Assembly (NCBI GenBank): GCA_965262115.1
Contig: OZ253496.1
Location: forward strand, 1,504,001-1,568,000
Origin: Nitrospinales bacterium
GTDB taxonomy: Bacteria; Nitrospinota; Nitrospinia; Nitrospinales; VA-1
Reading direction: 5' to 3'
DNA: 64,000 bases
Made by a program: the position numbers and the translations under genes. The notes beneath the pieces were generated by a model. That model did not search any database. It was given only the letters and a program-made list of their open reading frames with translations, and was not told where the DNA came from. This document shows positions 10,167 to 55,305 of this stretch, in pieces. Position 1 is the stretch's first letter; each line of letters begins with the position of its first letter.

Positions 10167-10417
10167 CAGTAGCGGAATGGGTGGGCATCAAGTTGTCTTG
10201 GCTTGATAAGCAATTGCCCAATTCCCCCCTGATAAGGGGGGCTAGGGGGGTTGCTCAAAGGGCCCCTCTTTCTAAAGTACCCGTGCCGGGCACGAGGGCT
10301 TTGGAACAATATCACGAGGGGCTGGGGTGATTTGCCTCAAGGGGTTTTGTCATTGCGAACGAAGTGAAGCAATCCAGAAAGCCTGGATCGCCGCGCCACT
10401 TTGCGGCTCGCGATGAC
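10142..10417. repeat. Composite repeat cluster: family B (10142-10241), CCCTCTTT hairpin carrying a family A unit (10278-10316), REP-like family C (10349-10417)
   Basis: 10263-10358 is homologous to the reverse complement of about 21566-21661. Confidence 0.8.
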
Positions 10418-10527
10418 AAAGTGAAAGCTTGCCCCCTTTTCCTTGCACTACCCCCCGCCAAACAGATACAATCGGCATTCAAAATCGAGAATCGGAAGTT
10501 TTAAATTAAACGAAAAAGGGGATGGGT

Positions 10528-10818
10528 ATGTCAAAACTACTAGCTATAATTCTAGCACTATTGTTTATCGGCTGCGCAACCGAACGCTTTGGACGTCTGC
10601 AACACGTTACCAATTCCGAAAAGAATTATTTAACTTGTGAAGCTATCCAGGTCGAGCTTGAAAAAGCGCAAGATTTTATTATCGAAACAAATAAAGAAGA
10701 TAACGAATTTAAAGGAACAGATTTTTTAGCTTTCTTAGGTGATTTTGGAATAGGTAATGCCATGGAAGTGTCTAGCGTCATCGAGGGAGATGAATCCCAT
10801 ACTGATTCGGAGAATTAA
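10528..10818 (+). CDS. Putative lipoprotein, C-terminus possibly truncated
   Basis: Signal peptide with FIGC lipobox-like motif; LGDFGIGN. Confidence 0.65.
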   Translation: MSKLLAIILALLFIGCATERFGRLQHVTNSEKNYLTCEAIQVELEKAQDFIIETNKEDNEFKGTDFLAFLGDFGIGNAMEVSSVIEGDESHTDSEN

Positions 10819-11007
10819 ACAGGATTGAGCGCAGTCCGTAGCAAATCCTCCGCTTTCGAACCCTTTTTAGTAATTAGCCCTCATTGCATTGCCGGAGGTT
10901 TTCAGATAAAATAATGCCGGATGAAAGACGGGAAGTAATTGTTGCACTTCTAAAAAACAGGAACTACAATTCTAAAAACTATAAATCAAAAGATATAGCC
11001 AAGTAGT

Positions 11008-12452
11008 GGGCCTGTTGCCCAAAGGGTTGCCGTGAAGGGTTGCTGATATTAATTTTGTGTATTTCTTACGAATTTTCTTTTCTAAATTGAAATCCCAAAA
11101 CCCAGATTCATTCCTCCCCAAGTTGAAGCCTGCAAGCAGTTTTTGAATCGTTGTACGACCTTCAGTGCATGACTGTGAATCGGTTTTTTCAGGTGTTGGA
11201 TCATTCGTTTGATGTTTTGAATGGATGCGGTCAGGTATTCTTGAATCTGGATCAGCCATAATCTTCGCCACCGTGCCCTTTTGAATCCCAAGGGCACCGA
11301 ATATGCGAATGACCGTTCCATAAGATGCTGTCTCGTTTTCAGGTCTTGTTTTCCTTTTGGGGTCTTTGCCATTGCGCGCATTTCTTCGAGGTCGTCCTGA
11401 CGATCAACCCGTTGGATCGTGCGTCCGGTTGCACTACGTGTGCATTGGGATTTTAGTTCGCAGGCATTACCGTCGTCTGCTCTGGCGGCGTAATACATAC
11501 GCTGCTCTTTTAACCGGCAGGTCTTCAGCCGCAAGCGTTTGCCCACCGGGCAGATATAGGTATCGCTTTCAGGGTCGAATGTAAATGCGCTGTTGGAAAA
11601 TATTCCATGACGTTTGCCGTCTGTTTCCTGACTCTTTTTCAGGTCGGGCATATGGGGTTGAATGCCCATATCTTTGCAGGCAAGAAAGTTTTCCACCGTA
11701 CCGTATTTACTGTCGGCCACTGCGGTCTTCGCTGACATCCCGGTATTTTCCTGGTGCGCTTCCAGCATGGCACTGAACCGATGCGAATCGTCTACATCGC
11801 CACGTGTCACCTCAGTCGTGGTGATCACTTCCGCCGCCGGATCCACCGAACGATGTACTTTATAACGCAAACGCGAACCCCCGCGCGGCACAATCGCCGC
11901 ATCCGGAGCGGTCGTAGAACGGTAACGAACATTAACTTCTCTGCGTACCCGCCGATTATTGGATTCCTCCGGTTCGCCCAGTCTCTCACAAAGTTTCTCG
12001 TAACCCTTGGTTTCGATAATACGCTGGGATTAGGAATCACAGTGTCCAGACCATAACCCAGAAACCAGAGCCAATCCATCCGCTACGGAAGCGTACGCAT
12101 CAACTCACGTTCGGAACGAACGTTGTAAAAGATGAGCAGCAACATCAGTTTTAGCATCACCGGAGGCGGAACCGATTCGTTGCCATTGTGGCCGTACTTA
12201 TCCTTTACTTGTTCATACACAAAATCCAGGTTCAAAACGGAAGAAACTTGCCGCAACTCGTGATCTGGAGGACTCCGATCTTCAAGATTCACGGCCTAGT
12301 TAAAGAATACGCTCTGGGACGGGGTTTCGCGTTTCATCATGGGAATGACTCCCGGAAAAAAAGATTAAAACTGTAGAAGAACAAAAACTAGCCAGATAAA
12401 TTATAATCCTTATAAACCCACGCTTCTATCAAAAGGTTTGGGCAACAGGCCC
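11008..12452 (-). mobile_element. Degenerate IS1182-family insertion sequence
   Basis: Perfect 16-bp TIRs GGGCCTGTTGCCCAAA (11008-11023) and TTTGGGCAACAGGCCC (12437-12452) enclosing transposase fragments. Confidence 0.9.
11082..12340 (-). pseudogene. IS1182-family transposase pseudogene
   Basis: N-terminal SVPPPVMLKLMLL..SERELM..WLWFLGY; C-terminal VADSKYG, YICPVG, MERSFA; in-frame stops, frameshift and internal deletion. Confidence 0.88.
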
Positions 12453-12467
12453 AAAAGACTTGACAGG

Positions 12468-12819
12468 GAGAGCTTTGCATAACCCGAGATTACCCCTTCT
12501 ACCCGTTCCGGGCATGAAGTTTAAGGAAGAGGACATCACATACCCGTTCTACCCCTGCGGGGCACGAACCGATGGAAGAAATATCACACGCTCATGATGT
12601 TATAGGTTGGGGATATCACAGGCTCGCGAAGGTTAAGGAAAAATATCACGCCTTCGTCACCTTGTTCCTCAGAATGACAAAATGGCCCAGTATTGTCATG
12701 CTGAGCTAGTGATATTTGACCTTTGAATTCTTGCCCCGTAGGGGTATGTGATATCCTCTTCCTTAAACTTCATGCCCGGAACGGGTAGAAGGGGTAATCT
12801 CGGGTTATGCAAAGCTCTC
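12468..12819. repeat. MITE-like composite with 78-bp inverted arms and six nested or tandem family A units
   Basis: 12468-12545 is the reverse complement of 12742-12819 with one mismatch. Confidence 0.85.
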
Positions 12820-13225
12820 GTTTCCAGAGGTAATTTTATGGGTCCGCAGCAGGGTTGAGGCGAATAACGGTCTGCATTGAAGATTAAAAGTAAATCGACA
12901 AAATGACAGTTGGTGAGTTTTTCAGGAGGTTCCTTCCTGTCCCACAAAAAATAGCTTTAATTCTGGGGAGAATTAGTCCAATTATACCCCCTCAAGCCCG
13001 ATCTCCCAAGTTTCGAGCATCCTCTGAGCTTGATTCGCGGTCTATTTCCAGAGGTTTCTGCCCTTTTTCAGAGTGGCAAGTGATTTTTTCCTGTTAAGAC
13101 GGGTTTTTAGTGGAAAACCGACTCGTCAGGCCTTATTTTGGTGGGTTTCGTATTGTCACACTATATTGAATATGTTAGTCTGAGCTACAATTTGGTTCCC
13201 TTTTTGGGGACTTCCCAAAAAATCT

Positions 13226-13299
13226 CTCACGTTTCCGGATCAAGCCAAGGGTGGCCTGCGGGTTCTTGGTGCGAAGCGATGGAGGCGGAGGTACAACCC
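13226..13299 (+). promoter_or_regulatory. Probable S2 (rpsB) autoregulatory leader
   Basis: CTCAC...GGGTG...GGAGG..AACCC layout upstream of rpsB resembles the known rpsB leader. Confidence 0.55.
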
Positions 13300-13320
13300 A
13301 TTCATTTTTAAGGAGTTTGC

Positions 13321-14118
13321 ATGTCTGAAATCACCATGAAGCAACTGCTGGAGTCGGGGGTCCATTTCGGACACCAGACCAATCGCTGGAACCCAAAAAT
13401 GAAACCCTATATTTATGGGGCACGTAGCGGGATCTATATTATTGATCTGCAGAAAACCCTGGTTCATTTCCAGGAAGCTGAAAAATGTGTCCGGGAATTG
13501 GCTCGGGCTGGCAAGAAGATCCTTTTTGTGGCGACCAAAAAACAGGCGCATGAACTGGTTGCCGAAGAAGCAACCCGTTGCGGGATGTACTACATCAACC
13601 AAAGATGGCTTGGCGGTACGCTTACAAACTTTGCCACCATTCGCAAGAGCATCGCCCGGTTGCATGAACTGGAAAAAATGGACGAAGAAAACCAGTTCGA
13701 TCTTTTACATAAAAAAGAAGCTTTGAAAATGAGAAGAGAAATTGACAAACTGAATAAATTCTTCAGAGGTATCAAAAATATGAAGGATTTGCCGGATGCT
13801 CTTTTCATCGTTGATACACGGAAAGAAAAAATCGCGCAGGCTGAAGGTCAAAAGCTGGGCATTAAAATCATCGCTATGGTCGACACCAACTCCGACCCGG
13901 ACGGCGTGGACTATCCCATCCCGGCAAACGATGACGCAATGCGTTCTATCAAGCTGTTTACCCAGCGGATTGCGGATGTCTGTCTGGAAGGACAGGAAAT
14001 GAACAGGGCCAGCCAGGCTAAAAAAGAGGCGGACAAAAAACCTGAACCCAGCGATTCGCCGGAACCGGTTTCGGTTGCCGGTGACAACGGGAGCAGTGAA
14101 AGCTCTGTGCCTGCCTGA
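13321..14118 (+). CDS. rpsB: 30S ribosomal protein S2
   Basis: [33 protein letters not shown]. Confidence 0.98.
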
Positions 14119-14342
14119 ACCACTGAACATCTCCCCGGGTTCCTATAGGTTAAGAACATCCTTTAAGGAAAGAGTCTAGGTGTATCCGGGCTGAAGCCGG
14201 GAGTCTGAAAAACCGGTTGCGACGGAAAAATTAAGGGAAGCTCTAAAGAACTTTTGTGAGCTTGCAATTCGCCGCCCCATGGCAAAATTTGATTTTTAGT
14301 ATTCTTGAATTTTAATAAACAATTTTTGATTAGGGAAATGGA

Positions 14343-14930
14343 ATGGAAATAACTGCTGCGATGGTTAAGGAATTGCGCTCTCAGTCGGGCGCGGGAATTA
14401 TGGAATGCAAGTCGGCCCTGAAAGAAACCCGGGGCGATGTGGAAGAGGCGATCACATTTCTCAGAAAAAAAGGATTGGCCAAGGCAGATAAAAAGGCCGG
14501 CCGCCAGACCGCTGAAGGAGTCATTGGTTCCTACATCCATCAGGGTAGCAAGATTGGCGTGATGATTGAGCTCAATTGCGAAACGGATTTTGTGGCCAAC
14601 ACCCCTGATTTTCAGGAACTGGTCAGGGATATTGCCATGCATATTGCGGCGGCCAGACCACGTTTTGCCACCCGCGAAGAGGTGACCGAAGATGTTCTTG
14701 CAAAAGAACGGGAAATCTTTGCCCATCAGGCCAAGGAATCAGGAAAGCCGGAAAACATCGTTGAAAAAATTGTTACCGGGAAAATGGAAAAATTCTACGG
14801 AGAAAACTGCGTGCTGGAGCAGCTGTTTATCAAGGATACCAATATTACTATTGGCGATTTGATCAAACAGAAAATCGCCCTGCTGGGTGAAAATATCAAT
14901 ATTGGTCAATTTTCCAGATTTGAAATTTAA
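14343..14930 (+). CDS. tsf: Elongation factor Ts (short form)
   Basis: [24 protein letters not shown]. Confidence 0.98.
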
Positions 14931-15655
14931 TGGGCGAGCCGATTTATAAAAGGGTATTGTTGAAACTGGGCGGTGAAAGCCTGGCCGCTGAAGAAGGCGC
15001 ATTTGGTCTGGACGAGGGCGCTCTGACAAATATTACGGAAGAAATCCGCGAGGCCAGAGATCTTGGAGTTGAAATTGCTATTGTCATCGGAGGAGGCAAT
15101 ATTCTAAGAGGTGCGTCCTTGAGTTCTATAGGAATCGAGCGCACTACTGGCGACTATATGGGGATGCTCGCGACAGTGATCAACGGGCTGGCGTTGCAGC
15201 ATGCTTTGGAACACGTTGGAATTCCCACCCGCGTGCAGTCTGCGATCGAAATTCAGGCGGTGTCGGAAACCTATGTGCGCCGCCGTGCGATTCGTCATCT
15301 GGAAAAAGGGCGTGTGGTTATATTTGCAGGCGGGACAGGCAACCCCTATTTCACCACCGATACAGCGGCATCTCTTAGAGCCATGGAGATTGGCGCGGAG
15401 GTGATTTTCAAAGCCACCAAGGTTGATGGAATTTATTCTGCGGACCCCATGACCGATGAGTCGGCCACGAAATTCGAGGATCTGTCTTATCTGGATGTGC
15501 TGCAGAAGGGTTTAAAGGTTATGGACTCGACCTCGATATCCCTTTGCATGGATAACAAGCTGCCGATGATCATATTTAACTTTCGCCATAAACATAGTAT
15601 TAAACGGGTTCTGCTGGGTGAAAAACTCGGCACCATAGTGGGAGTCTTAAAATGA
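14930..15655 (+). CDS. pyrH: UMP kinase
   Basis: [29 protein letters not shown]. Confidence 0.98.
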
Positions 15656-16209
15656 TTGCTGATTTAATCCATAGCGCAGAAAAGAAAATGGGGATCTCGG
15701 TCGACCACCTGCATCATGAGTTAGGGAAGTTGCGGACAGGTCAGGCTTCGGTTGCGCTGTTGGATGATCTCAAGGTCGATTACTACGGAAACCCGACTCC
15801 TTTAAATCAGGTAGCGACTTTGGGCACCCCGGACAGCCAGACCCTGACGATCCAACCTTGGGAAGTATCGATTTTGAAGGATATCGAGAAAGCTCTCCAG
15901 GCATCAGATCTTGGCCTAACTCCCAACAACGACGGCAAGATGATCCGCCTCACCATTCCACCACTCACCAATGAGCGTCGGCAACAATTGGTCAAGCTGG
16001 TAAAAAAGTATTCTGAGGACTGCAAGGTGGCGATCCGGAATGTGCGGAGAGAAGTTAACGATAAGCTGAAAAAAACAGAAAAAAATCATGAGATTTCGGA
16101 GGACGAAAGCCATAAAGCCGTGGACAATATCCAGAAAATGACCGATAAGTTTGTCGCCGAAATTGATAAAATCGCCCAGACTAAAGAAAAAGATATGATG
16201 GATGTATGA
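15652..16209 (+). CDS. frr: Ribosome recycling factor
   Basis: [26 protein letters not shown]. Confidence 0.98.
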
Positions 16210-16311
16210 AGCAGTTTTTTTGTAGTATCTTTTCAGTATGCAGGTAGTATGTTTGTCAGAAAGCCCCTCTTCTTACCGGTGGGTTTGGCCAATTAATCAG
16301 GAGCCGCCTCC

Positions 16312-17067
16312 TTGGTCGATATATCGTTGCAGGAAAAAATAGATTCCAATCGTTTGCCCAGGCATGTTGCCATTATTATGGATGGCAACGGGCGCTGGGC
16401 GCAAAATAATTCCCTCCCCCGTATTGAAGGTCATTGGGCGGGCGTCAAGGTCGTGGACAGCATTGTCACCCTGAGCCGCGAACTCAACCTGGAAGCTTTG
16501 ACCCTCTACTCGTTCTCCGATGAGAACTGGAACCGCCCGTCCACAGAAATCAACACGCTCATGAAAATCCTGGATTTTTATTTGAAGAAGGAATTGAAGC
16601 GGATGAAAGATGAGAATATCCGCTTCAATACCATTGGGCGTGTTCAGGACTTGCCCGAGGCGATCCAAAAATTGATCCGTCATTCCATAGAAGATACTCG
16701 TAATAATGCCGGTATGGTCCTCACCCTGGCGCTGAGTTATGGCGGCAGGCAGGAGATCATCGATGCGGTAAAAAATATTGCTGAGCAGGTTCGCTCGGGA
16801 CGGATCCGGCCGGAAGAAATTGATCCGGCCCTGTTTGAATCGTTTCTTTCCACACACCCTCTTCCCGACCCTGATCTGATTATCAGGACCAGCGGAGAAA
16901 GAAGGATCAGTAATTTTCTTTTGTACCAGAGTGCTTATACCGAATTGCACTACAACAATGTGTTGTGGCCGGACTTTTCGGATGATGATTTCCTGAACGC
17001 GATCATTGACTTTCAAAGCCGAGACCGGCGCTTTGGAATGACGCAAGAACAAATTGTCAAAGCCTGA
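16312..17067 (+). CDS. uppS: Undecaprenyl diphosphate synthase (TTG start)
   Basis: HVAIIMDGNGRWA, FSDENWNR, IRTSGERRISNFLL. Confidence 0.97.
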   Translation: MVDISLQEKIDSNRLPRHVAIIMDGNGRWAQNNSLPRIEGHWAGVKVVDSIVTLSRELNLEALTLYSFSDENWNRPSTEINTLMKILDFYLKKELKRMKDENIRFNTIGRVQDLPEAIQKLIRHSIEDTRNNAGMVLTLALSYGGRQEIIDAVKNIAEQVRSGRIRPEEIDPALFESFLSTHPLPDPDLIIRTSGERRISNFLLYQSAYTELHYNNVLWPDFSDDDFLNAIIDFQSRDRRFGMTQEQIVKA

Positions 17068-17159
17068 CCTCAATCATTGACCATTCCTATTGAGAAACCC
17101 ACACCCGTGATCTTAAACGTTCCCACAAGGATTCATAAAAACCCAACAGGAGCTGGCTC

Positions 17160-17954
17160 TTGAAACGCGTTATCAGTGGAGCCATAGGCATTCCCATTGT
17201 GCTGGGAATTGTGTTGTACGGCTCTCCCCTCTTGTTCTTTGGTTTTGTTACGGCAATTGTTTTGCTCGCCAGCTACGAATACTTTGCCATGACTTCTAAT
17301 ACGGGTGTAGAGGGTTTTCCCATTGAGGGCGGGGTGTTGAGTTTCCTGCTTTTACTGGGTTTCTATCTGGGTACCCAGTTTTTATTTTTATTTGCAGCCC
17401 TGCTTCCCGTCATTTTGTTCGCGACCTGGTTCTTCAGGGAAAATAATGTGAAAGTGGCTTTGGATCCGATCGCTTATACGGTTCTCGGGGTTTTTTATAT
17501 TGCGGGATTGGGCGGGTACTTCCTGTTGATCCGCAATTTGGAAGGCGGAAGCCAGATGATCGTGTTCCTCCTGCTTCTGATCTGGGCTGGTGATACGGCA
17601 GCCTATTATGCCGGCCAGAACCTGGGCAAACACAAACTCATGCCTGTGATCAGTCCCAACAAGACGATGGAAGGGGCTATCGCCAATGTGCTGGGAACCC
17701 TTTTGGCCGCATTAATCATCAAGTTATGGTTTTTTCAGGAATTTTCGCTAACGCATTGTTTGATTGTAGCCTTTATATGCGGTATCATCGGTCAGTTTGG
17801 GGATTTTTCGGAATCGCTGATAAAAAGAAATTGTCGGGTGAAAGATTCAGGCTCATGGATTCCGGGCCATGGCGGTTTTCTTGATCGTATTGACAGCCTG
17901 TTGTTCGCTGGCCCGGCTTTCTATTGTTATTACCAATTGTTCCTGGGGACATAG
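17160..17954 (+). CDS. cdsA: Phosphatidate cytidylyltransferase
   Basis: SPNKTMEG, GDFSESLIKR..VKDSG..IPGHGGFLDRID. Confidence 0.96.
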   Translation: MKRVISGAIGIPIVLGIVLYGSPLLFFGFVTAIVLLASYEYFAMTSNTGVEGFPIEGGVLSFLLLLGFYLGTQFLFLFAALLPVILFATWFFRENNVKVALDPIAYTVLGVFYIAGLGGYFLLIRNLEGGSQMIVFLLLLIWAGDTAAYYAGQNLGKHKLMPVISPNKTMEGAIANVLGTLLAALIIKLWFFQEFSLTHCLIVAFICGIIGQFGDFSESLIKRNCRVKDSGSWIPGHGGFLDRIDSLLFAGPAFYCYYQLFLGT

Positions 17955-17977
17955 TCAAACCCCGTCAGGACAACTTC

Positions 17978-19132
17978 ATGAAAAAGATATCCCTTCTGGG
18001 CTCGACGGGTTCCATTGGCGTCAACACGCTGGACGTTATAGAGCGCTATCCCGAAAATTTTCAGATTTGCGCCCTTTCCGCCGGAAGCAACGTAGAACTG
18101 TTTGCCCGCCAGATTCGAAAATTCAAGTCCGCACTCGCCGCCCTGTTTGATTCCACTAAAGTGGATGCCTTGAAGGAACTGGTTGGCGATTTGGATGTGG
18201 AAATCGTTTCCGGTCCGGAAGGTTCGGTTTCTGCCGCTTCTTTTCCGGAAGCCGACCTGGTCGTTTCCGGAGTGGTGGGCAGCGCCGGATTGCTCCCAGC
18301 CCTTGCTGCACTCAAAGCCGGAAAAAACCTGGCGCTTGCCAATAAAGAAACGCTTGTTATAGCTGGCGAACTGGCGCTGAAAGAAGCCGCGCGGACCAAC
18401 ACTAAAATCATTCCTATCGACAGCGAACACAGCGCAATTTTTCAGGCTTTGAACGGAGAGAAAACAGAGCGCATCAAAAAAATTATTCTGACCGCGTCTG
18501 GCGGACCTTTCAGAACTTTCAGCCTCAAGCAGATGGAAAACGTCACGGTGAAGGAGGCGCTCAATCATCCCAACTGGAGTATGGGAGCCAAAATCACCAT
18601 CGACTCTTCCACCATGATGAACAAGGGCCTCGAATATATAGAAGCCAAATGGCTGTTTGGCGTGGAGACCAACGTCGAGGTCATCGTTCACGCACAGAGC
18701 ATCATTCATTCGATGATCGAGTTTGTCGACACTTCCATCATGGCGCAGTTGGGCATTCCCGATATGCGGGTTCCCATCGCTTACGCCCTGACTTATCCGG
18801 ACCGGTTTGAAAGTGAACTGCCCTCTCTGGATTTGGCAGCAATGGGTGACCTGACCTTTGAGGCTCCAGACTTTGAAAGATTTCCCTGCCTGCAACTGGC
18901 TATGGATGCCATGGAAATGGGCCAGACCCTGCCGGCAGTCCTCAATGCCGCTAACGAAATCGCAGTGCAGGCGTTCCTCGATGAACTGATCCCCTATAAA
19001 GATATTGCAGAACTCATTCGCATGGTCATGCAAAATCACCGCCCGGTCCCCCTGCAGGAATTGGAAGATGTTCTGGAAGCCGACCGCTGGGCTCGCGAAG
19101 AAACTACAAAACTAATAACAGTCACCCATTGA
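17978..19132 (+). CDS. dxr: 1-deoxy-D-xylulose-5-phosphate reductoisomerase
   Basis: LGSTGSIG, LANKE, PIDSEH, TASGGPF, KITIDS, NKGLE. Confidence 0.97.
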   Translation: MKKISLLGSTGSIGVNTLDVIERYPENFQICALSAGSNVELFARQIRKFKSALAALFDSTKVDALKELVGDLDVEIVSGPEGSVSAASFPEADLVVSGVVGSAGLLPALAALKAGKNLALANKETLVIAGELALKEAARTNTKIIPIDSEHSAIFQALNGEKTERIKKIILTASGGPFRTFSLKQMENVTVKEALNHPNWSMGAKITIDSSTMMNKGLEYIEAKWLFGVETNVEVIVHAQSIIHSMIEFVDTSIMAQLGIPDMRVPIAYALTYPDRFESELPSLDLAAMGDLTFEAPDFERFPCLQLAMDAMEMGQTLPAVLNAANEIAVQAFLDELIPYKDIAELIRMVMQNHRPVPLQELEDVLEADRWAREETTKLITVTH

Positions 19133-19234: not shown

Positions 19235-19241
19235 TTAATAA

Positions 19242-21479: not shown

Positions 21480-21774
21480 GTCATCGCGAGCGACTGCAAG
21501 GGGCGCGGCGATCCAGTCTTTCCGCTTCGGGGCATGAAGGCAAATGAAGAATTTCACACAGTTGCTCGCGATGACAACCCCTTGTTGTAAATCACCCCAG
21601 CCCCTTGTGATATCACCTTCCATAAACTTCATGCCCGGTACGGGTACTTTGAAAAAGAGGGAGCACCCCATCAAGCCGAGAAAAACGATTGCTAGCAGTA
21701 AAACGCTATTGCATTTGTACCCCTCCGGGGCACGAAAACTGAGGAAGAATATCACGGCCCCAGCGTCACGCTGG
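21480..21774. repeat. Composite repeat cluster: family C, CCCTCTTT hairpin and partial family B, each carrying a family A unit (21520-21558, 21606-21646, 21718-21756)
   Basis: Direct comparison with copies at 10.3, 39.5, 43.4 and 53.4 kb. Confidence 0.85.
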
Positions 21775-21791
21775 GTGGTATAATTCGCGCT

Positions 21792-26729: not shown

Positions 26730-26834
26730 CATTCATGCCCTGAAGGAATATGTGATATTCAACCATCTTATATGGATATCATCTCCATAATGTGATAGTA
26801 TAGTCTGAAACTCATTAAAGGTAAATAATTCTTT

Positions 26835-34528: not shown

Positions 34529-34639
34529 GTCATCGCGAGCGACTAATTAAGGAGCGTGGCGATCCAGGTTTTAACCAAAGGTTTAAATTCCAGACTCAGA
34601 ACCTGGATTGCTTCGTCGCCGGTGGTTCCTCGCAATGAC
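34529..34639. repeat. REP-like family C element, uninterrupted copy
   Basis: GTCATCGCGAGCGAC..GGAGCGTGGCGATCC..GGATTGCTTCGTCGC..TCCTCGCAATGAC. Confidence 0.85.
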
Positions 34640-34859: not shown

Positions 34860-34931
34860 TAGGCACGGGCGGTTTCGAACCGCCGACCCCTTGCATGTCA
34901 AGCAAGTACTCTACCCCTGAGCTACGCGCCT
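34860..34931 (-). tRNA. tRNA-Val(GAC), CCA not encoded
   Basis: AGGCGCG..TAGCTCAG, anticodon arm CTTGC-TTGACAT-GCAAG, GGTTCGAAACC. Confidence 0.96.
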
Positions 34932-39517: not shown

Positions 39518-39634
39518 GTCATCGCGAGCGACTGTGTGAAATTCTTCATTTGCCTTCATGCCCCGAAGGGGTAAAAGGAGCGCGGCGATCCGGGTTTCTG
39601 GATTGCTTCGTCGCGGTTAGCTCCTCGCAATGAC
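39518..39634. repeat. Family C element carrying a family A unit (39535-39573)
   Basis: Left part near-identical to 43352-43425. Confidence 0.88.
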
Positions 39635-40845: not shown

Positions 40846-40866
40846 GTATCTATTGTAAGATGGCCT

Positions 40867-40950
40867 CACTTCCCTTCGCTGGCATGATCCAGATCAGGTT
40901 CAAAGGGTCGTCCTGTTTTAGGACTCTCAGTTCAAAAACGCCCCCAGTGT
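40867..40950 (-). ncRNA. TPP riboswitch
   Basis: GGGGG..CTGAGA..ACCCTTTGAACCTGATCTGGATCATGCCAGCGAAGGGAA upstream of thiSGEC. Confidence 0.95.
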
Positions 40951-41023
40951 TCGTGACGAGTCTAGGTTATTTCATATTTCCTACAAGTCAACAATTATTG
41001 ACGTAAAAATAAAAAAGAGTAAT

Positions 41024-43351: not shown

Positions 43352-43507
43352 GTCATCGCGAGCGACTGTGTGAAATTCTTCATTTGCCTTCATGCCCCGA
43401 AGGGGTAAAAGGAGCGTGGCGATCCAGACTTCTGGATTTACCCTTTCAGGGCACGAAAGCTTGGGAAGAATATCTCGGCTTCGTCGCTGTTGGCTCCTCG
43501 CAATGAC
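43352..43507. repeat. Family C element carrying two family A units (43369-43407, 43439-43477)
   Basis: Removing both 39-mers restores the arms seen at 34529-34639. Confidence 0.9.
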
Positions 43508-45926: not shown

Positions 45927-45951
45927 AGCGGGGAAAGTGGATAGGCGGCTT

Positions 45952-47614: not shown

Positions 47615-47620
47615 ACCCGG

Positions 47621-48489
47621 CTAGGGATTGTGGGCAAAAGAGCTCTGCCCCTCCAGGGTTTTCAACTCTTCGATTTCTTGATCTGCAAGAATTTTATAAA
47701 TATCCAGAACGCTTCGGTGTACATAGGGATCGTCATTTTTCAAGGCCAGGGCAGACCAGTAGCGGGAAAGGGCCTCCCGGAACATTTTTTTCTTCTTATA
47801 CAAGTCCCCGAGTTTGACATAAATTTCCAACCGCTTTGGTTCCAGAACTGAAACCCTTTCAAAATAGTTCGCGGCCTCAAAATAATCTCCCGACCGTTTA
47901 TATTCTTCAGCCAGAGCTTCCAGATAAGCAGGGTTCTCTGCTTCCAGATCAATGGATTGTTTCAGGTGCTCAATGCCTTGAGCAAACTTTTCCCGTTTCA
48001 GGTGCAACCGCCCCAGCCGATAGTGGGTGAGAGCATGTCGGCTATCAATACTCAAGGCCTTGAGATATTTTTGCTCCGCCTCGGCAAACTTTCCTTCCCG
48101 CTCCTTGAACTCTCCCAATCAGGATTTTTATTTGCCGCAGTTTCAAGTTGCCTGAAAGCCTCGTCCCGGTTTCCCTTGTTGTAATGAATTCCCGCCAGGT
48201 TAATGCGGCTGAAAGTGTCTTCGGTGATTTTCAGGATATCCCGGTAAAGGTTTTCGGCCTGGTCGGTCTTGTCCTGGTCCTGATATACAATGGCCAGGTT
48301 GTACATAGAGAAGGTGTCGTTGGGGTTTTTCCGGAGTGCCAGGTTGTACTCTTCAATGGCTTTGGCCAGTTCCTGATTGTCGTAGTGCTCCACGCCTTTG
48401 TTGAAGTGGCTGTCGATAGGAGCGGGAACATTGGCGCAGCCGAAGAAAAATAAAGCCGCTATTATAACCCCGTTGTTTATTTTAATCAT
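47621..48489 (-). pseudogene. TPR lipoprotein, split near 48119
   Basis: FFGC lipobox; TPR repeats continue in a second frame after NKNPD. Confidence 0.78.
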
Positions 48490-48495
48490 CGTTGT

Positions 48496-49611
48496 CTAAT
48501 TGCCGGATACTTTGTCCAGCCGTTTCATCCGGATGTTGGCTTGTCCGGGAGCAGTGGCCTCCGCGGGTGGAACGGGCACTTCATCAGATTTGCGAATCAG
48601 TTTCCAGGGGTTCCGTTTCAAGTCTTCGGTCAGGGATTTCAGGTTTTGCGATGTTTCGTTCATGTTCTGGATAAGTTGAAGCAGGTTTCTGCGGTTTTCC
48701 ACCATGATGGAGTTGCCCTGGCCGAGAGTCTGTTCAACGCTCGTTGCGGTGCGGTCTATATCGATGGTGATTTCCCGTGCGTTCGTTTCCATACTATTGA
48801 TCAAACTGGTTACACCCGGTCGCGTGTCAGCAAGCAGGATTTCCATTTCCCGCGTCAGGTTATGAATCTGATCGATGATTTTGCGGATGTCCTTATCCTT
48901 GTCGGTGAACAGCTTGTCGGTTTTTTCTGAAACCGAAGCCACATGGTCGAAAGTGGATTGCAGTTTGCCGCTGTTTTTATCCAGCATGTCGGAAACCTTT
49001 TCGGAAATCTCCAGGGCATTTTCCATATTGGCCCGGATATATTTGCGGTTTTCTTCCAAGATCGTATCGACATTTGCGAGAGAGGTTCGAACATCTTTTA
49101 ATGTGGCACGGGCATCGGTAACAAGTTCCCCTGTCAGTTGGGTAAAACGCCGGATCTCCAACACCACCTCGGTAGCCATGTCGCCAATTTTAGCGATTTC
49201 AAACGAGTCCTCCCCAATCAACTCCTCATTGTCCTCTAAAGGTGGTGACCCTTGCGTACCGGGCCGCACGTCTATATAAAGCCCTCCCATCAGTCCGGAA
49301 GTTTTGATCATGGCGACGGAATTCTTTTTGATGATGATCTGAGGGTTGATTTCGGCCATCACTACCACTCGGTCATGGCCCTGATCATCCCCTAGCAATT
49401 CTATGTCCCTGACCGAGCCAATATCGAGCCCGGCATAACGTACCGGCGCGCCCACTTCCATCCCACCCGTAAAATTGAACACGATACGCAACATCTTCAT
49501 GGGTTTGAAATAATCCTTAATATCGCCCAACACGAAGATCATTACGATCAAAACCACCATGCTGACGAAAATAAAAAACCCGGCTTTAACTTCTGAGGAA
49601 CGATATTCCAT
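48496..49611 (-). CDS. MCE/MlaD family protein with long helical tail
   Basis: N-terminal TM, GAPVRYAG..IGSV, GLMGG.YI..PG, LKRNPW. Confidence 0.9.
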   Translation of the reverse strand: MEYRSSEVKAGFFIFVSMVVLIVMIFVLGDIKDYFKPMKMLRIVFNFTGGMEVGAPVRYAGLDIGSVRDIELLGDDQGHDRVVVMAEINPQIIIKKNSVAMIKTSGLMGGLYIDVRPGTQGSPPLEDNEELIGEDSFEIAKIGDMATEVVLEIRRFTQLTGELVTDARATLKDVRTSLANVDTILEENRKYIRANMENALEISEKVSDMLDKNSGKLQSTFDHVASVSEKTDKLFTDKDKDIRKIIDQIHNLTREMEILLADTRPGVTSLINSMETNAREITIDIDRTATSVEQTLGQGNSIMVENRRNLLQLIQNMNETSQNLKSLTEDLKRNPWKLIRKSDEVPVPPAEATAPGQANIRMKRLDKVSGN

Positions 49612-49614
49612 AGA

Positions 49615-50421
49615 TCAGGCTCGACTCATTTCTTTAAGTTCTTCCCCATAATCTGTCTGGCTTTTGCTGAACGGAATGGGTCCGTCCGGACTGCCTTCAA
49701 TAAACTGGATCACTTTTGGGTCATCGCTGTTCCTGATTTCCTCCGGCGTACCCTCCGCGATGATCTTGCCTTTGAAGAGCATAATAATTTTATCCGAAAT
49801 ACGCATGGCGCTGGGGATTTCGTGCGTGACCACCACCGAGGTGATGCCCATTTTCCTGCTGAGGTCCATGATCAACTTGTCAATCACGCCAATGGAAATT
49901 GGATCCAGTCCCGCCGATGGCTCATCATAAAAAACAATTTTTGGATCGAGAGCGATGGCCCGGGCCAGGGCAATGCGTTTGATCATGCCGCCGGAAAGTT
50001 GGGCTGGCTTGAGGTGCTCCGCTCCTCTTAGCCCGACCATTTCCAGTTTCATCTTAACCATGATAAGAATGGTGCCCTCGTTGAGGTCGGTATGCTCCCG
50101 CATGGGCAAGGCGACATTGTCCTCCACCGTCAGGGAGTTGAACAAGGCTCCGCTTTGGAACATGATGCCAAACTTTTTGCGGACACGATTGATCTCCTCG
50201 CCCTTGAACTGGCTGACTTCTTCGCCATCAATCCAAATTTCTCCCGAGTCGGGGCGATAAGCCCCTATTAAATGTTTGAGGACGGTGCTTTTGCCACTGC
50301 CACTGCCGCCAATGATGGAAGTGATCTGGCCTTTCTCCATGTGCGCGTTGAAATCTTCCAGAACAGTGATGCGCTGGTCGCCTTCTCCAAACGATTTTTT
50401 CAGGTTCTTGATTTGTATCAT
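49615..50421 (-). CDS. MlaF-like ABC ATPase
   Basis: GGSGSGKS, FQSGALF, LSGGM, YDEPSAGLDP, VTH. Confidence 0.93.
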   Translation of the reverse strand: MIQIKNLKKSFGEGDQRITVLEDFNAHMEKGQITSIIGGSGSGKSTVLKHLIGAYRPDSGEIWIDGEEVSQFKGEEINRVRKKFGIMFQSGALFNSLTVEDNVALPMREHTDLNEGTILIMVKMKLEMVGLRGAEHLKPAQLSGGMIKRIALARAIALDPKIVFYDEPSAGLDPISIGVIDKLIMDLSRKMGITSVVVTHEIPSAMRISDKIIMLFKGKIIAEGTPEEIRNSDDPKVIQFIEGSPDGPIPFSKSQTDYGEELKEMSRA

Positions 50422-51239
50422 CAGAGTACAAAGAAAAATAAGGATGTAAATATCAGATCGGCGATGATCACCAAAATCATCGATACCACCACGGCCGTGC
50501 GGGTGTTCTGCCCGACCATTTCCGCTCCGCCTTCAATAACGAAGGCCATATAACTGCCAACCATGACAATAATGACAGCAAATACTGCACTCTTGATCAG
50601 CCCGGTCACGACATCCTTCATCACCATGGCGTCCAGGGAGTTGTTGACATAGGTCACCGGGTCGATTCCCAACGTGGTGACGCCAATCAAAAACCCGCCT
50701 AATATCCCCATCAAGTCTGCCATGATGGTCAGGCAGGGGAGCATGATTAAAAGAGCGATAAACCGGGGAGTGATTAAAAACTTAACGGGATCCAACGCCA
50801 TGATCTCAAGGGCCAGCACTTCATCGGAAACCTTCATCGTCCCCATTTCGGCGGTGAACGCGGCCCCAACCCGTCCAGACATGACCAGTGCCGTCATCAA
50901 CGGCCCCAGCTCACGCAAAATGGCAACCCCCACCAATGCGCCAACAAACTCCAAGGCCCCCAACCGGCTCAACTGGTGTGCCGACTGAAACGCAAGAATG
51001 ACCCCGATCAGAAACGAAACCAGAAAAACAATGGTGGTGGACTTGACCCCAACCTCTTCCATCTGTGTCCACACCGGACGCCATTTATTGGGTTTGCCGC
51101 GCAAGGGTTCTATGAAGGTGCAATATAAAGTGGAACGGGTGAGATAATACAACCCGCTGATTTCCTTGAAAAAATTTTCCAAGACATCAGTGAGCTCGAA
51201 TCCCCTTCTCCCTATAAACCCGAAAAATGATCTGACCAT
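50421..51239 (-). CDS. MlaE-like ABC permease
   Basis: LRELGPLMTA..GRVG, AEMGTMKV, PRF. Confidence 0.93.
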   Translation of the reverse strand: MVRSFFGFIGRRGFELTDVLENFFKEISGLYYLTRSTLYCTFIEPLRGKPNKWRPVWTQMEEVGVKSTTIVFLVSFLIGVILAFQSAHQLSRLGALEFVGALVGVAILRELGPLMTALVMSGRVGAAFTAEMGTMKVSDEVLALEIMALDPVKFLITPRFIALLIMLPCLTIMADLMGILGGFLIGVTTLGIDPVTYVNNSLDAMVMKDVVTGLIKSAVFAVIIVMVGSYMAFVIEGGAEMVGQNTRTAVVVSMILVIIADLIFTSLFFFVL

Positions 51240-51375
51240 GAAAATGCTAATGCCCGTTAGAAATGGAACAAAAGGTTAACGAACCCGCATCACGATTCTC
51301 ACGTACAAGGTCCTCATCTAGAAGCGCAACAAATGTTGTTCGCTCTAAAAGGCCTCAACTCACTGCCTGCGGAGG

Positions 51376-51711
51376 CTACTCCGTAAGGGCTTGTTCTTTT
51401 GTGTCGAAAACTTCAAACACGCTTAACAGACGTGCGATCTCAAACACGTCCTTGACGCCGGGGTTCAAAGCCGCAAGGCGGAATTTGTTCTTGCTGTTGT
51501 GGCTCCATTGCAAGCCTTCCACAAGAGTGGCGATGCCAGAGCTGTCAATGTAGGAAACTCCTGATAAATCCACAACGATGACCTTATTGTTGTTCTGAAA
51601 AAGAGGAGCCAAAGCATCTCTAACTTTGGTCGAAGAACTCATGTCGATATCGCCAGTAACTTCGAGGGTCACCGTATCCCCGGCTTTATCCAGTTTTAAA
51701 TCTATACTCAT
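51376..51711 (-). CDS. STAS anti-sigma-factor antagonist (RsbV/SpoIIAA-like)
   Basis: GDID, DLSGVSYIDSSG, VFEIARL; AGAGG RBS. Confidence 0.9.
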   Translation of the reverse strand: MSIDLKLDKAGDTVTLEVTGDIDMSSSTKVRDALAPLFQNNNKVIVVDLSGVSYIDSSGIATLVEGLQWSHNSKNKFRLAALNPGVKDVFEIARLLSVFEVFDTKEQALTE

Positions 51712-51713
51712 AG

Positions 51714-52151
51714 TTACCTCTTGTCCTGTGTCGACGTCAGTCCGGTTCTTAATTTTTTTATCATGGTCAGCAATGTGCCCTTGGCCCGGTTGGTGCAATA
51801 GCTGACCTCATCCATAATTTCATTCATGAAATGGGTGCCCAGTCCACCCGGTTTTACATCCCCCAGGCTCCGCGGTTTTATCTGGTCAAGATCGCATTGT
51901 TTGCCGTAGTCGCGAATCTGAACTTTGAAGTTATCCTCTTCAATGGTGAAGGTGGCCTCAATCAGTTCATCGCAGGAACCTTCGTAACTGTGCTTGATCA
52001 CGTTCGCGCAGGCCTCATCGACACAAAGGATCAGGCGGCGGGCTGTATCCTCGGGCACATCATGGCTGTCCAAAAGCTCCTGCAAAACTTTACGAATCAA
52101 TCCCAGGTATTTCGGGTCACTCGGTATAGAAAGTTTGATGGGTTGGGGCAT
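51714..52151 (-). CDS. RsbW-like anti-sigma kinase (HATPase)
   Basis: DEACANVIKH, RDYG, GGLG..M..IMDEV. Confidence 0.9.
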   Translation of the reverse strand: MPQPIKLSIPSDPKYLGLIRKVLQELLDSHDVPEDTARRLILCVDEACANVIKHSYEGSCDELIEATFTIEEDNFKVQIRDYGKQCDLDQIKPRSLGDVKPGGLGTHFMNEIMDEVSYCTNRAKGTLLTMIKKLRTGLTSTQDKR

Positions 52152-52315
52152 AGGTCCTCGCTGGTATTAATTTAAAACTATTATAACGATCAAACCCCCG
52201 TTATTTCAATCATATCACCCACTGACGCGGGGAGCAATGGGCAATAGGTATAAAGCGGTCAGGTGTTGTTGAAGGCTGAAAAAGTCGAGTTAGTTGTCTG
52301 TGGCGCCTTGCTGCT

Positions 52316-52775
52316 TTATAAGGCTTTAAAGGTCAGGGAGGTGAGGTCGTCGAACTGGGGGGCGTCGCCGATGAATTGTTTGATGGAGGTTTCCAGATTT
52401 TGCAGGAATTCTTTCGCTTGGGCGGTATTGTCGGCAAACAGGTTTTTCAACCGATCGACTCCGAATTCCTTCTGCTGTTTGTTTTTGGGTTCGGTCACTC
52501 CATCGGTGAAAATAAGAATCTCGTCCCCGCTTTTAAGGCAATGTTCTTCCTGGCTGTATTGCATATGCACCCTCATCGACCAGCAATAAACTGCAGGCAT
52601 CGGCATTCATGACTTTTTTGGCAACATTCATGATGGTGTCGAGAAGATTGGCGAGATTCGGTTCGGAATTGATCAGGGAGGTGATTTTGTAGCAGGTTTC
52701 CAACTGGTCGATCCGCCGTTCCATTTGGGCCAGCCGTGAATCTGTGGAAGGCAATGCGTCTTTATCTGTACTCAT
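52316..52775 (-). pseudogene. GAF-SpoIIE (RsbU-like) phosphatase with large internal deletion
   Basis: GAF start (LLDTIM..A..ADACSLLLVDE) joined out of frame near 52570 to the SpoIIE end (FTDGVTE..QFDDLT). Confidence 0.82.
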
Positions 52776-52965
52776 GGTCCTCCATATCAGGAGAGGTGAC
52801 TTGTAAGGCCGAGATAACTCGTTGCTTGCTTGATGGGTTACTCTTATTGCCACCGGCGGCTCGCCGGTTGGCCTCACGCCGAGTGGTGGAGAAATAACTT
52901 TAACTTAGCCGCTAAGATAGCTAAAATGTGATAGTGGGTCAAACCGTTTCCCCAATATCTCGTTT

Positions 52966-53286
52966 ATGGACAGAAAGCTAAAACAAAGCTCAAGCGGGAA
53001 CTGGTCAGAAATTAGGTCGGTTCTTTTTCAGTCTCTTCCTGATGAAATGTTTTCCAAGGCGAATCAACAGGAATGGCTGACCTATCATTGGAACCTGGTA
53101 GTGGGAAAAGAAATTTCAGGGGTTTCCACCATTGACAAGGTGGCGCGGGGGATACTCCATGTACGGGTAGAGGGTAAGGAGTGGGTGCCAGTTTTGGATC
53201 TGTTAAAAAGCAAAATCGTGCAGGAAATAAATAGCAGGGCAGGTGAACCGTTGTTAAACGGTATTGTGTTTAAGGCAGTGGCCTGA
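52966..53286 (+). CDS. DUF721/DciA-like protein
   Basis: W..VVG..I, G.L.V.V...W...L...K..I...IN pattern. Confidence 0.75.
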   Translation: MDRKLKQSSSGNWSEIRSVLFQSLPDEMFSKANQQEWLTYHWNLVVGKEISGVSTIDKVARGILHVRVEGKEWVPVLDLLKSKIVQEINSRAGEPLLNGIVFKAVA

Positions 53287-53331
53287 TATGCTCTAAAGAA
53301 AAATTTTCTATATGTCAGGGCAATCCAGAAG

Positions 53332-55305
53332 ATGAAAGCTATAGCCTGTGAATTAAAGTCTATTTGCAGAATCAGCCAGCGGAGAGCCTCCGCAGGCGTA
53401 ATGTTTTTCCTTGGCCTTCGTGCCCCGGAGGGGTACAAATTGCAATATCTTTCCCTGGCTAGAAATGATTTTCCCGGTTGGGCAAGCCATTGCCCAGTTG
53501 CCTCCACGGCTAGTGGGCGGAGAGCCTCCGCTGCAGGTTTATTCATGCTCCTGTTCCTGGCGAGTTGCACGACAATACCCGGAGTCCCGGATTCAACGAC
53601 TTCTGACTTGTCTTCTTCCTATGCGGTTTTGTCGTTCGAAAAGAAAAAACAACTTTCCGGGAAACTGGATACGCGGGATCCCCGCTCCTATTACCACTAC
53701 CTGCTGGCCCTGAAGGCGGAAAAGGGCTACCAGATGGATCAGGCCGCTGTGCATTATAAAGAAGTGGTCCAGTATGATCCGGAAACAGAAAGGTTCCATG
53801 AAAAATGGGTTCGCCTGTTGCTCCGTACCGGTCAGTTGGATGAGGCCGTTGAAGCCGGTCAAAATGCACTGGCCCGTTTTCCCAACAACGAGGAAATTTT
53901 GATGGTCCTGGGGGATATTCTGGCCAGTCAGGGGAAAGCGGAAGAGGCCATCACGTATTATGACCGGATTAGCCGGGTTGCCTCTGGAAATGCCCGGGCT
54001 CCGTTACTGAAAGGTTCTTTGTTAGAGGGGTTGGAGCGATTTAACCAGGCTTTTGAAGAGTATAAGAAAGCGGCGTTGATAGAGCCGAAAAATCCTCTGG
54101 TGCAGTTTTATCTGGGCCGGGCCTATTTGCGGGCCAACCAGTTGCCGGAGGCCGAAAAGAGTCTTGAAACGGCAGTTTCCCTGAAGCCCAACCTTCTCCA
54201 GGCCCGACACCATTTAGCCTGGGTGCTCGAACGTCAGGGCAGAACCGTTGAAGCGTTGAAAGAATATGGGCTATTGTTAAAGCTGACACCGGATAACGAA
54301 TATATTAAAAATCGGGTTTCACAGCTTCACTCTTCGGATTCTTTGGGTCAGAGCCCCTCGCAGGGTTTTGAAGCCATTCCCTCCGGCTTGGCAGAGCAAC
54401 CCGATATCCATATGCGTATCGCAACGATATATTTTGAGCAAACTCTATATATGAGAGCATTGGATGAGTTTCAGCTTGTTCTGGCCAAACACGATTACAA
54501 GGATCCGCATGTTCTCATGGCCCGGATTTATGAAACTCACGGCCGCCTGGACAAAGCCGTTGAGGAGTTTGAAAAACTCAGAAAGCTGGAACCGCAATCC
54601 CTGGACCTTCTCCTTTATACGGCCCGGCTCTATAGCTTGATGAAAAAAACACAAAAATCGGTGGGTCTGCTCAATGAGGCCGTTGCAATAGAACCGGAGA
54701 ACGACCAGATACATCACTCTCTGGCACTGGCCTACATGGCCCTCAAAAAAAATGAGGAGGCCATTGCAACCATGCGGAAAGCTTTGGCTTTGAACCCTCA
54801 AAAAGATTCCTACTATTTTGATCTGGGCGCCCTGATGGAAAAAGCCGGAGATTACCAAGGGGCCATTGCAAATATGAGGCTGGCGATTGAGTTAAATCCT
54901 TTGCACTATAACGCACATAATTTTTTGGGGTACATGTATGCGCTGGAAGGACACGACCTTGACCAGGCCCTTGAGCATCTGAAAAAGGCCCTGACCATCC
55001 AGCCTCGCAACGGCTATTTCCTGGACAGCCTGGGTTGGATTTATTTCAAAAAAGGCGAATCGGAAAAAGCTTTAACGCAAATTCAGAAGGCCTTGATCTA
55101 CACCGAGCCGGACCCGGTACTTTATGACCACCTTGGGGATATTCTGTTCTCTCTGGAAAATTACGATGAAGCCAATTGGGCATGGAGAAACAGCCTGTTT
55201 CTCACTGTGAATCCAAAAGACGACCTGGGTGGAGAAGCGCCGGACCCGCAAACACTTAAGAATAAAATTAATAAATCGAAAAGGCTTTTACAAAAGAGCT
55301 ATTAA
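53332..55305 (+). CDS. TPR lipoprotein; 5' end carries an in-frame repeat insertion, true start uncertain
   Basis: LASC lipobox, many TPRs, NFLGY, DSLGW, DHLGD; precedes LolB-like gene and ispE. Confidence 0.88.
   Translation: MKAIACELKSICRISQRRASAGVMFFLGLRAPEGYKLQYLSLARNDFPGWASHCPVASTASGRRASAAGLFMLLFLASCTTIPGVPDSTTSDLSSSYAVLSFEKKKQLSGKLDTRDPRSYYHYLLALKAEKGYQMDQAAVHYKEVVQYDPETERFHEKWVRLLLRTGQLDEAVEAGQNALARFPNNEEILMVLGDILASQGKAEEAITYYDRISRVASGNARAPLLKGSLLEGLERFNQAFEEYKKAALIEPKNPLVQFYLGRAYLRANQLPEAEKSLETAVSLKPNLLQARHHLAWVLERQGRTVEALKEYGLLLKLTPDNEYIKNRVSQLHSSDSLGQSPSQGFEAIPSGLAEQPDIHMRIATIYFEQTLYMRALDEFQLVLAKHDYKDPHVLMARIYETHGRLDKAVEEFEKLRKLEPQSLDLLLYTARLYSLMKKTQKSVGLLNEAVAIEPENDQIHHSLALAYMALKKNEEAIATMRKALALNPQKDSYYFDLGALMEKAGDYQGAIANMRLAIELNPLHYNAHNFLGYMYALEGHDLDQALEHLKKALTIQPRNGYFLDSLGWIYFKKGESEKALTQIQKALIYTEPDPVLYDHLGDILFSLENYDEANWAWRNSLFLTVNPKDDLGGEAPDPQTLKNKINKSKRLLQKSY
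53379..53531 (-). repeat. Family B element with nested family A unit (53397-53435), bounded by two GCGGAGAGCCTCCGC copies
   Basis: 15-mers at 53379-53393 and 53517-53531. Confidence 0.85.

Follow-up and report, generated by a model that had tools for sequence, protein, structure and literature searches.

The 64,000-nucleotide stretch of Nitrospinales contig OZ253496.1 analysed here (hereafter the window) contains copies of a 39-41-bp repeat, family A of the initial annotation, which we call the unit. We found that the unit is a real, active and very small mobile element. It occupies sites that are empty at the orthologous position of a related genome, it has sharp boundaries, and covariation between its two ends suggests that it moves as single-stranded DNA. 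The initial annotation, made from the window alone, had proposed a very small non-autonomous element with neither a target duplication nor terminal inverted repeats. The comparison of filled and empty sites that it suggested bears this out, and neither feature was detected. Positions are numbered on the strand on which the unit was first described, from e1 to e16 at its start and with r-1 as its last base, while L and R denote the left and right flanks.

Copy number, mobility and target sites

The source genome, G000, is a single 2.68-Mb contig that contains the window. A regular expression matched 258 copies of the unit in G000 and none in two shuffles. The genome-wide profile scan suggested by the initial annotation, performed with a position-weight detector that iteratively removes nested copies, located 361 units, compared to none in 1 Mb of shuffled sequence and none in the reversed G000 genome. 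The same detector found 526 units in G013, a relative with approximately 95% identity to G000, of which 2.80 of 2.86 Mb was scanned. The fixed length and divergent middle noticed in the window hold across G000: 348 of the 361 copies are 39-41 bp long, and the middle is highly divergent (288 distinct among the 361). Although non-coding DNA makes up 19% of the genome, it holds 295 of the 361 units.

An exact pattern of the unit was present in 34 of 120 genomes of the phylum, with no hits for a backward control. These included 20 of 22 relatives in the genus, all six genomes of a second genus and scattered genomes elsewhere. Among the matches listed in a pattern scan of species genomes, almost all were from Nitrospinaceae, and the host lineage is that of marine nitrite-oxidising bacteria. 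Rfam, a further check suggested at the outset, gave no match on the unit at gathering score; its only matches in the window were three tRNAs (4386-4469, 34860-34931 and 57069-57141) and a TPP (thiamine pyrophosphate) riboswitch (40854-40955, minus strand). Four copies of the unit lie on one phage-like 50-kb contig from a viral collection (L301-L304), which makes phages a possible route of spread between lineages. In G007, which with G000 and G013 is one of the three richest near-complete genomes, one unit variant recurs at a spacing of about 96 bp (G007:C1:490489-492363), probably inside tandem repeat arrays.

Units were stripped from G000 and G013 before insertion points were compared in well-aligned orthologous sequence. 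Of the 53 aligned insertion points, 24 were filled in both genomes and 29 rows were filled in one only. Eight of the one-sided rows represented four shared insertions that the detector had phased differently, and their removal left 21 orthologous sites at which only one of the two genomes carries the unit and the other is empty. Fourteen pairs were free of gaps, and at these the target bases were neither gained nor lost (as in AAGTAT^TGCGC and GTTTTT^TCTGG). Target duplications of 2-5 nt were looked for and none were found; a 1-nt flank match occurred at background level after clustering of the sites into 193 distinct flank clusters (0.30 of 193). Clean insertions were also present in non-repeat sequence. 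The unit inserts into itself as well: nested copies follow base 9, 20 or approximately 30 of another unit or lie in antisense, and further copies sit immediately in front of the start of a unit.

Many units are carried by other elements. One inverted-repeat MITE (miniature inverted-repeat transposable element) of 137 bp, with ends GAGAGCTTTGC/GAGACCTTTGC, contains 72 of the 361 units in G000 and 155 of the 526 in G013, and chimeric copies and flank swaps around insertion sequences (ISs) of the IS110 family are common. If the unit were not itself mobile, it could spread only as a passenger of such MITEs and ISs and by gene conversion. This is highly improbable considering the 193 distinct flank clusters and the nesting at four internal positions in both orientations, and it is largely refuted by the clean filled and empty orthologues outside repeats. 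The 137-bp MITE has 71 copies in G000 and 146 in G013, roughly 9-12-bp target duplications and CGTC-type hairpins. It has been very active between the two genomes.

The initial annotation had further proposed that the unit targets hairpin repeats. Targets are indeed more structured than random intergenic DNA, with a mean folding energy of -7.7 vs -5.4 kcal/mol and 45% vs 17% of sites at or below -8 kcal/mol. However, a fixed insertion position within target stems had to be rejected as none was seen, and the clean non-repeat insertions and the 72 MITE passengers do not fit the proposal either. The target motif is loose: a T-rich left side followed by N-S-Y-N-C, in which R5 is C in 124 and R3 is C or T in 146 of 193 clusters. 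Orientation relative to genes is balanced (85:77). The variable middle was rejected as a guide to the target, since no diagonal of complementarity or identity appeared over the 193 flank clusters and the cognate-target duplex was no better in 36 comparisons. Hammerhead-like words in the middle were dropped as too variable.

Predicted pairing of the joined ends and changes in the target flank

Two pairs of positions covary far above the rest. The first, e6:e10, closes a three-base loop, and the second links e16 to the last base. The latter pair is Watson-Crick in 0.89 of 257 distinct sequences from G000, 0.86 of 303 from G013 and 0.86 of 267 from other loci (a set that may overlap G013), fractions that are not probabilities since unit copies are related, compared to 0.46 after shuffling, with a maximum of 0.54 (500 shuffles for each set). 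All four Watson-Crick pair types occur, and e16 does not pair with either flank (0.17 and 0.16).

Since the partners within the hairpin sum to 16, the last base takes up position 0 of this stem when the ends are joined, which brings the C that is nearly invariant at r-2 opposite G17. It is only on the reverse strand that the joined ends fold into a continuous stem of 8 bp (-4.6 vs -3.5 kcal/mol with DNA parameters), and there the invariant A2/C14 mismatch of the strand first described becomes a G.T wobble. Loop bases 7 (T) and 9 (C) are fixed in 252 and 242 of 257 sequences, base 8 is free, and the reverse strand thus reads G-N-A. Triloops of the d(GNA) type are known for their high stability in DNA (PMC3201870). 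We predict that the working strand is the reverse complement of the strand first described. It reads N-GTGATAT, a variable pyrimidine-rich loop and TTC-N'-TGCCCC-GNA-GGGGTA, in which N and N' stay complementary. Because the joined ends complete the hairpin on this strand, covariation in assembled contigs makes it likely that the unit forms a single-stranded DNA circle. The folding and the covariation support single-strand logic of the kind seen in HUH elements, to whose hairpin ends the initial annotation had pointed.

Folded as RNA, the joined stem would likewise be stable (-10.1 kcal/mol). This would suit a route in which a transcript of the unit, its ends folded together, is spliced or ligated into another RNA and then copied back into DNA. 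A route of this kind was reportedly proposed for the SDR repeats of cyanobacteria, which the unit resembles in size, self-nesting and compensatory changes, and the diverged middle would fit it too. We consider an RNA intermediate unlikely, since the GNA triloop is a DNA motif, insertions show no orientation bias to transcription, and reverse transcriptases (RTs) are missing from G007 and G031 and represented in G000 only by a broken one.

Removal of the unit had been claimed to restore the host. This is not always so. Many insertions leave the flank unaltered, but on the side that adjoins ATATCACR, changes at target bases +3 and +4 are frequent and sometimes extend over +1 to +5. On the working strand, bases 3-5 upstream of the joint are the ones often changed at filled sites, toward the target motif. 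Among 32 distinct nests in units cut after base 9, the conserved host GG at R3-R4 appears as CT in 24 and as CC in one, and is GG in seven; about six more GG nests failed the distinct-nest filter, so that the CT share is nearer 24/38. None of 894 uninterrupted units has CT at this position. At one orthologous site the copy is plain and has GG in G013, while in G000 it carries an insert and has CT, and two cases of the GG-to-CT change lie in the window (12591 and 12623). In base-9 nests the inner variant is very different from the outer one, and R1 is the base of the target (G, C or A). A second host reads TGCT in five of six filled sites vs none of 219 empty sites, and TGGG or TGG is present at three orthologous sites that are empty. 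Base-20 nests of the GCTAx type read GCTAC in 10 of 11 cases vs two of 73 uninterrupted copies.

In the gap-free orthologues, R1-R6 differ at 16 of 84 positions, compared to 45 of 672 distal positions (p=4e-4). Bases R1-R5 are common to related units at unrelated sites (z=4.1), and left-flank bases are likewise (z=3.1). A template for the edited bases was looked for and not found; there are slight indications that they may be copied from the donor flank or rewritten in repair of the joint.

One-sided edits without a change of length, as well as the absence of a dedicated transposase, would be explained if the unit were copied in by template switching. Exposed single-stranded DNA would be nicked, for example by the hairpin nucleases associated with the most frequent host repeats, and the nick would prime synthesis across a folded donor unit. 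Synthesis would start exactly at the hairpin and rejoin the target a few bases beyond the unit, and the donor flank would overwrite +1 to +5. The sharing of these bases among related units fits this explanation, as does the finding that the CT edit accompanies a consensus end of the inner copy (22/24 vs 2/7, p=0.002). Candidate nucleases exist, with GIY-YIG genes in 22 of 23 genomes of the genus and DUF559 genes flanked by host repeats. However, nearly all edited cases retain the target's own base at +1 (G, C, A or T), so the copied tract is not contiguous with the joint, and left-flank bases are shared too. GIY-YIG genes also occur in the unit-free genomes G009 and G017, DUF559 is missing from the unit-rich G007, and template switching needs no end-to-end pairing. 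Taken together, we regard it as somewhat unlikely.

The edits also fall within about five bases on one side, and +3 and +5 move toward C like the unit start. This is what a host tyrosine recombinase (XerC/D-like or integron-integrase-like) might produce if it joined the folded circle to the target with a five-base overlap and patchy heteroduplex repair, and two XerC/D-sized integrases are present in every genome tested. Conversely, the common edit gives CT and not the unit-templated CC (24 vs 1), there is no dif- or attC-like arm structure, and integrase genes are universal whereas the unit is patchy (34/120). This alternative is quite unlikely.

Proposed transposition route and associated elements

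The reading we favour, to which we give an even chance, is a mini-element of the IS608 or PATE kind that is peeled off and pasted as a single-stranded circle by a helper in trans. The enzyme would cut and rejoin the unit, probably with IS608-like (HUH-type) chemistry. The first two bases of the element would take part in the lowest pairs of the terminal hairpin, an arrangement that would hold the 5' end beside the 3' end. Excision would yield a 40-nt circle with its joint inside the 8-bp stem and a resealed donor, and integration would be the reversal, 3' of a loose G-N-R-S-N motif followed by A/T-rich bases on the working strand. The unit's own 3' end satisfies this motif, which would account for tandem and nested arrays. 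As described in PMC5027513, IS608 has its motif 5' of the joint, no target duplication and a single-stranded circle, with a polarity that the unit matches, and it shows lagging-strand bias. It is possible, though we hold it more tentatively, that the unit belongs to a new class of mobile DNA reduced to a minimum. In this reading, a single-stranded circle of 40 nt would bring its own joint into alignment and tolerate any loop sequence, perhaps even cargo of kilobase length. The enzyme, supplied by the host or by a mobile element, would lie outside every transposase family known, and the reaction itself would alter two bases of the target.

Several observations weigh against the IS608-like route. 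IS608 chemistry leaves flanks unchanged, whereas those of the unit are often changed. In the orthologue set, the right flank (16/84) is not above the left flank (12/84, eight of these differences coming from two poor pairs) or shared-filled sites (13/90), and general flank editing therefore rests on the three host contexts above. Outside MITEs, a replichore test showed no clear lagging-strand bias in G000 (121/236, p=0.75), and the trend in G013 favours the other strand (164/294, p=0.054). The circle is predicted from covariation and none was observed as such. Target C/T at +3/+4 would pair better with the hairpin arm of the strand first described, through a G.T wobble. On that strand too lies the wobble of T16/G-last, which outnumbers C16/A-last 14:4, 23:11 and 30:2. 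In tandem pairs, T..A precedes C..G 41 times and the reverse order never occurs; collapse of such pairs gives a T16/G-last chimera, which fits the excess.

The same applies to the search for a helper. There is no Y1 transposase (IS200/IS605) in G000, G013 or G007, and in five genomes there was no Rep_trans match and no Y2 match, though the positive control for Y2 was also blank. No open reading frame (ORF) lies between unit halves in G000 or G013, as a parent element would require. A motif screen for HUH enzymes and recombinases retained 43 of 1,912 shared ORFs, of which 12 were scanned against Pfam and none was HUH. The HUH enzyme that the initial annotation had looked to, as well as an HUH gene flanked by unit ends, thus failed to appear in the genomes searched.

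Y1 transposases are present in 7 of 23 genomes of the genus, and the six loci read have no unit ends. TnpB occurs in one of five rich genomes. A parent element was found neither in six viral loci nor among the metagenome loci listed. The best-looking HUH motif was rejected as the antisense of a real gene, and no shared gene flanked by units was nuclease-like, as judged by eye. Y1, RT, IS110, TnpB, resolvase, Rep_trans, DUF559 and GIY-YIG were rejected as helpers since they do not track the unit. No helper enzyme was found in searches that did not include relaxase, other Rep, Cas1 or ligase families, and with most of the proteome unannotated the helper may be a divergent enzyme. An integrase-like ORF at G000:C1:2164564-2165397 seemingly lacks the C-terminal catalytic residues and has no counterpart in G013 or G007.

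The unit is in turn a target of an IS621-like IS110 of 1.2 kb, found at G000:C1:736439-737657, in about 24 other copies and at L290, L291 and L292. G000 has 24 DEDD-domain matches. Its IS110 junctions lie in the unit loop in 24 of 25 cases on the left and in all 26 on the right, with CT on both sides. The left non-coding end of the IS carries TTTACCCCT and CCCGAAG, which match the two halves of the unit hairpin, and the target guides of the IS621 bridge RNA are described as matching target halves likewise (PMC11208160). A second variant (L290) has the guide CCCGCAG and a junction with the matching TGC loop, suggesting that the putative bridge-RNA guide varies along with the loop that it targets. 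Among the IS110-bearing sites of G000, the G013 counterpart is a plain unit at two and entirely empty at another two, a pattern to be expected when the unit arrives before IS110; G013 has one truncated IS110 remnant, also within a unit. Judging from these matches, IS110 is a parasite of the unit, programmed against it, and not its parent.

The junctions inside the unit, the edit that creates the CT of the IS110 core, and the release of single-stranded circles of which IS621 is described as capable (10.64898/2026.08.31.748434) might alternatively point to an IS110 recombinase with a unit-recognising bridge RNA as the helper. We give this very little probability. The crossover is inside the loop and not at the unit ends, IS110 is present in 6 of 23 genomes of the genus vs the unit in 20 of 22 relatives, the 526 units of G013 coexist with a single truncated remnant, and two IS-bearing sites hold a plain unit there. 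The unit was likewise rejected as a non-autonomous derivative of IS110, since it matches the target guides and not the donor and the crossover is inside its loop. Four IS110-bearing units at different loci (G000:C1:120373, 737644, 1745600 and 1895284) share an identical nested right half. These right halves are suggestive of the movement of a 1.3-kb composite of unit and IS110 with unit ends at its borders, which was rejected as they are equally explained by conversion between IS copies or flank swaps.

In the window, the eight single copies of the initial annotation were all located (Table 1), and its six copies in 12491-12796 correspond to four nested plus-strand and two tandem minus-strand units, together with a 9-nt stub. 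The degenerate sites that it placed near 4330-4364 and 26734-26760 are both remnants below the profile threshold. Its empty host forms were recovered for the 43439 copy (CTGGATT^GCTTCGTCGC, at 34603 and 39598 and four times in the genome) and for the 21606 copy (once in the genome). The host of the 21718 copy has no exact empty match, but the orthologous site is empty in G013, though diverged. Skips of 39 bases at 43438 were rejected as evidence of excision, since they stem from paralogous empty repeats in assembled contigs.

Table 1. Units, remnants and the MITE that carries units in the window.
Feature	Positions	Strand	Remarks
Unit	10278..10316	+	In CCCCT..AGGGG hairpin repeat (AAAG^AGGGG)
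Inverted-repeat MITE, 352 bp (GAGAGCTTTGC...GCAAAGCTCTC)	12468..12819	.	Six units as passengers
Outer unit cut after base 9	12491..12650	+	Hairpin GG reads CT at 12623-12624
Unit nested in loop of outer copy	12500..12540	+	Head-to-tail before next copy
Second-level unit cut after base 9	12541..12620	+	GG reads CT at 12591-12592
Innermost nested unit	12550..12588	+	
Unit, A16/T-last variant	12708..12746	-	Precedes AGCTCAGCATGAC
Unit	12747..12787	-	Tandem, 5' of the 12708..12746 unit
9-nt stub of further unit, cut after base 9	12788..12796	-	
Unit with degenerate 5' end	21520..21558	+	In CGTC-type palindromic repeat
Unit	21606..21646	-	In CCCTCTTT..AAAG^AGGGG hairpin
Unit	21718..21756	+	In ~95-bp repeat family; G013 orthologous site empty but diverged
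Unit	39535..39573	-	At CTTT^CAGTC in CGTC-type repeat
Unit	43369..43407	-	At CTTT^CAGTC; identical to 39535 copy
Unit	43439..43477	+	At CTGGATT^GCTTCG; empty paralogues at 34603, 39598
Unit	53397..53435	-	Also present at orthologous G013 site
Degenerate remnant, right part only	4330..4364	+	
Degenerate remnant	26730..26760	-	End of one copy head-to-tail with start of another

Other repeats accompany the unit. The commonest hosts are the hairpin repeats on either side of small nuclease genes of the DUF559 and GIY-YIG (Ssn-like) types, located at G000:C1:377367-377768, at eight other DUF559 matches and at 2573200-2573538. A 92-103-bp family with GGGGCC..GGCCCC-type ends, found near 21660-21775 in the window and at many intergenic sites, is present or absent at orthologous sites and is a frequent host. 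A third family, starting TCCCACA..TGGGTTTTATT, has four 95-bp insertions in G000 that are absent from G013, at AT-rich positions (TTGAA^TGA) where no duplication is obvious. The MITE cluster of the window adjoins a transposase-like IS (10997-12465; ORF 11082-11891, minus strand) with at least four G013 copies that are 96-97% identical.

Comparison with known systems

No description of the unit was found in the literature searched, a coverage that excluded subscription papers and ISfinder. The unit bears on the question of how repeats of fewer than 50 bases, such as SDRs, CGTC repeats and small mobile repeats, spread without target duplications, terminal inverted repeats or a neighbouring transposase. 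Its covariation names an exact substrate (strand, joint and stem), hundreds of natural variants map the changes permitted, and the reproducible GG-to-CT change is a footprint that would have to be accounted for by any enzyme proposed as the helper. If the proposed route is correct, a seamless single-strand integrase needing about 25 fixed bases would be a useful tool, and the IS110 offers a natural bridge RNA whose guide seems to track the target loop variant.

By analogy, the unit may work most like a PATE or a terminal-only IS605 derivative. PATEs and terminal-only IS200/IS605 derivatives of Haloquadratum are described as non-autonomous, without terminal inverted repeats or target duplications, and with an end hairpin and a one-sided target motif (PMC3119063), as in the unit. 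According to the same account, a 52-bp form with a single palindrome may be mobile, other mobile elements target PATEs, and strain-specific insertions occur though intact tnpA is scarce. Unlike PATEs, the unit is only 39-41 nt long, and its hairpin is strictly terminal, with the opposite end extending it. Its target motif is loose, its flank is often rewritten, and it shows no clear lagging-strand bias. The richest genomes contain no related IS605 parent, TnpA or TnpB, and the fixed, unchanged 4-5-nt target 5' of PATE-type insertions was not found. Since a parent, TnpA and a fixed target are all lacking, we do not classify the unit as a PATE.

REP/REPIN-RAYT systems (PMC3116915) resemble the unit in that they are described as short extragenic hairpin repeats with hundreds of copies that are targeted by IS110, and CGTC-type REPs and Ssn-associated repeats (PMC3733652, PMC11893778) are also described without a dedicated transposase. 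In contrast to REPINs, a single asymmetric unit is mobile, as seen at orthologous empty sites, and not an inverted doublet. The unit consensus has no GTAG or CGTC tag, no RAYT is flanked by units (RAYT-like loci lack them), and CGTC-type repeats are its hosts. MITEs differ in their terminal inverted repeats and target duplications. The IS110 of the unit is like IS621 in its DEDD domain, the CT core duplicated at both junctions and the two-guide left non-coding end, as far as these are described in PMC11208160; its programmed target would be a mobile unit rather than a REP.

The nearest precedent for the size and nesting of the unit and for its spread without a known mobiliser may be the SDRs of cyanobacteria. 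Those of Nostoc, reportedly described by Elhai et al. in 2008, are said to be self-nesting, to show compensatory changes and to measure 21-27 nt; neither flank rewriting nor a GNA junction stem is known from them. The unit is longer than this and occurs in another phylum. Like the unit, Nostoc SDR1-8 are very small and insert precisely with no identified mobiliser (as cited in PMC4390886 and PMC3116915), and SDR5 is noted to insert precisely into HIP1 (cited in PMC4390886).

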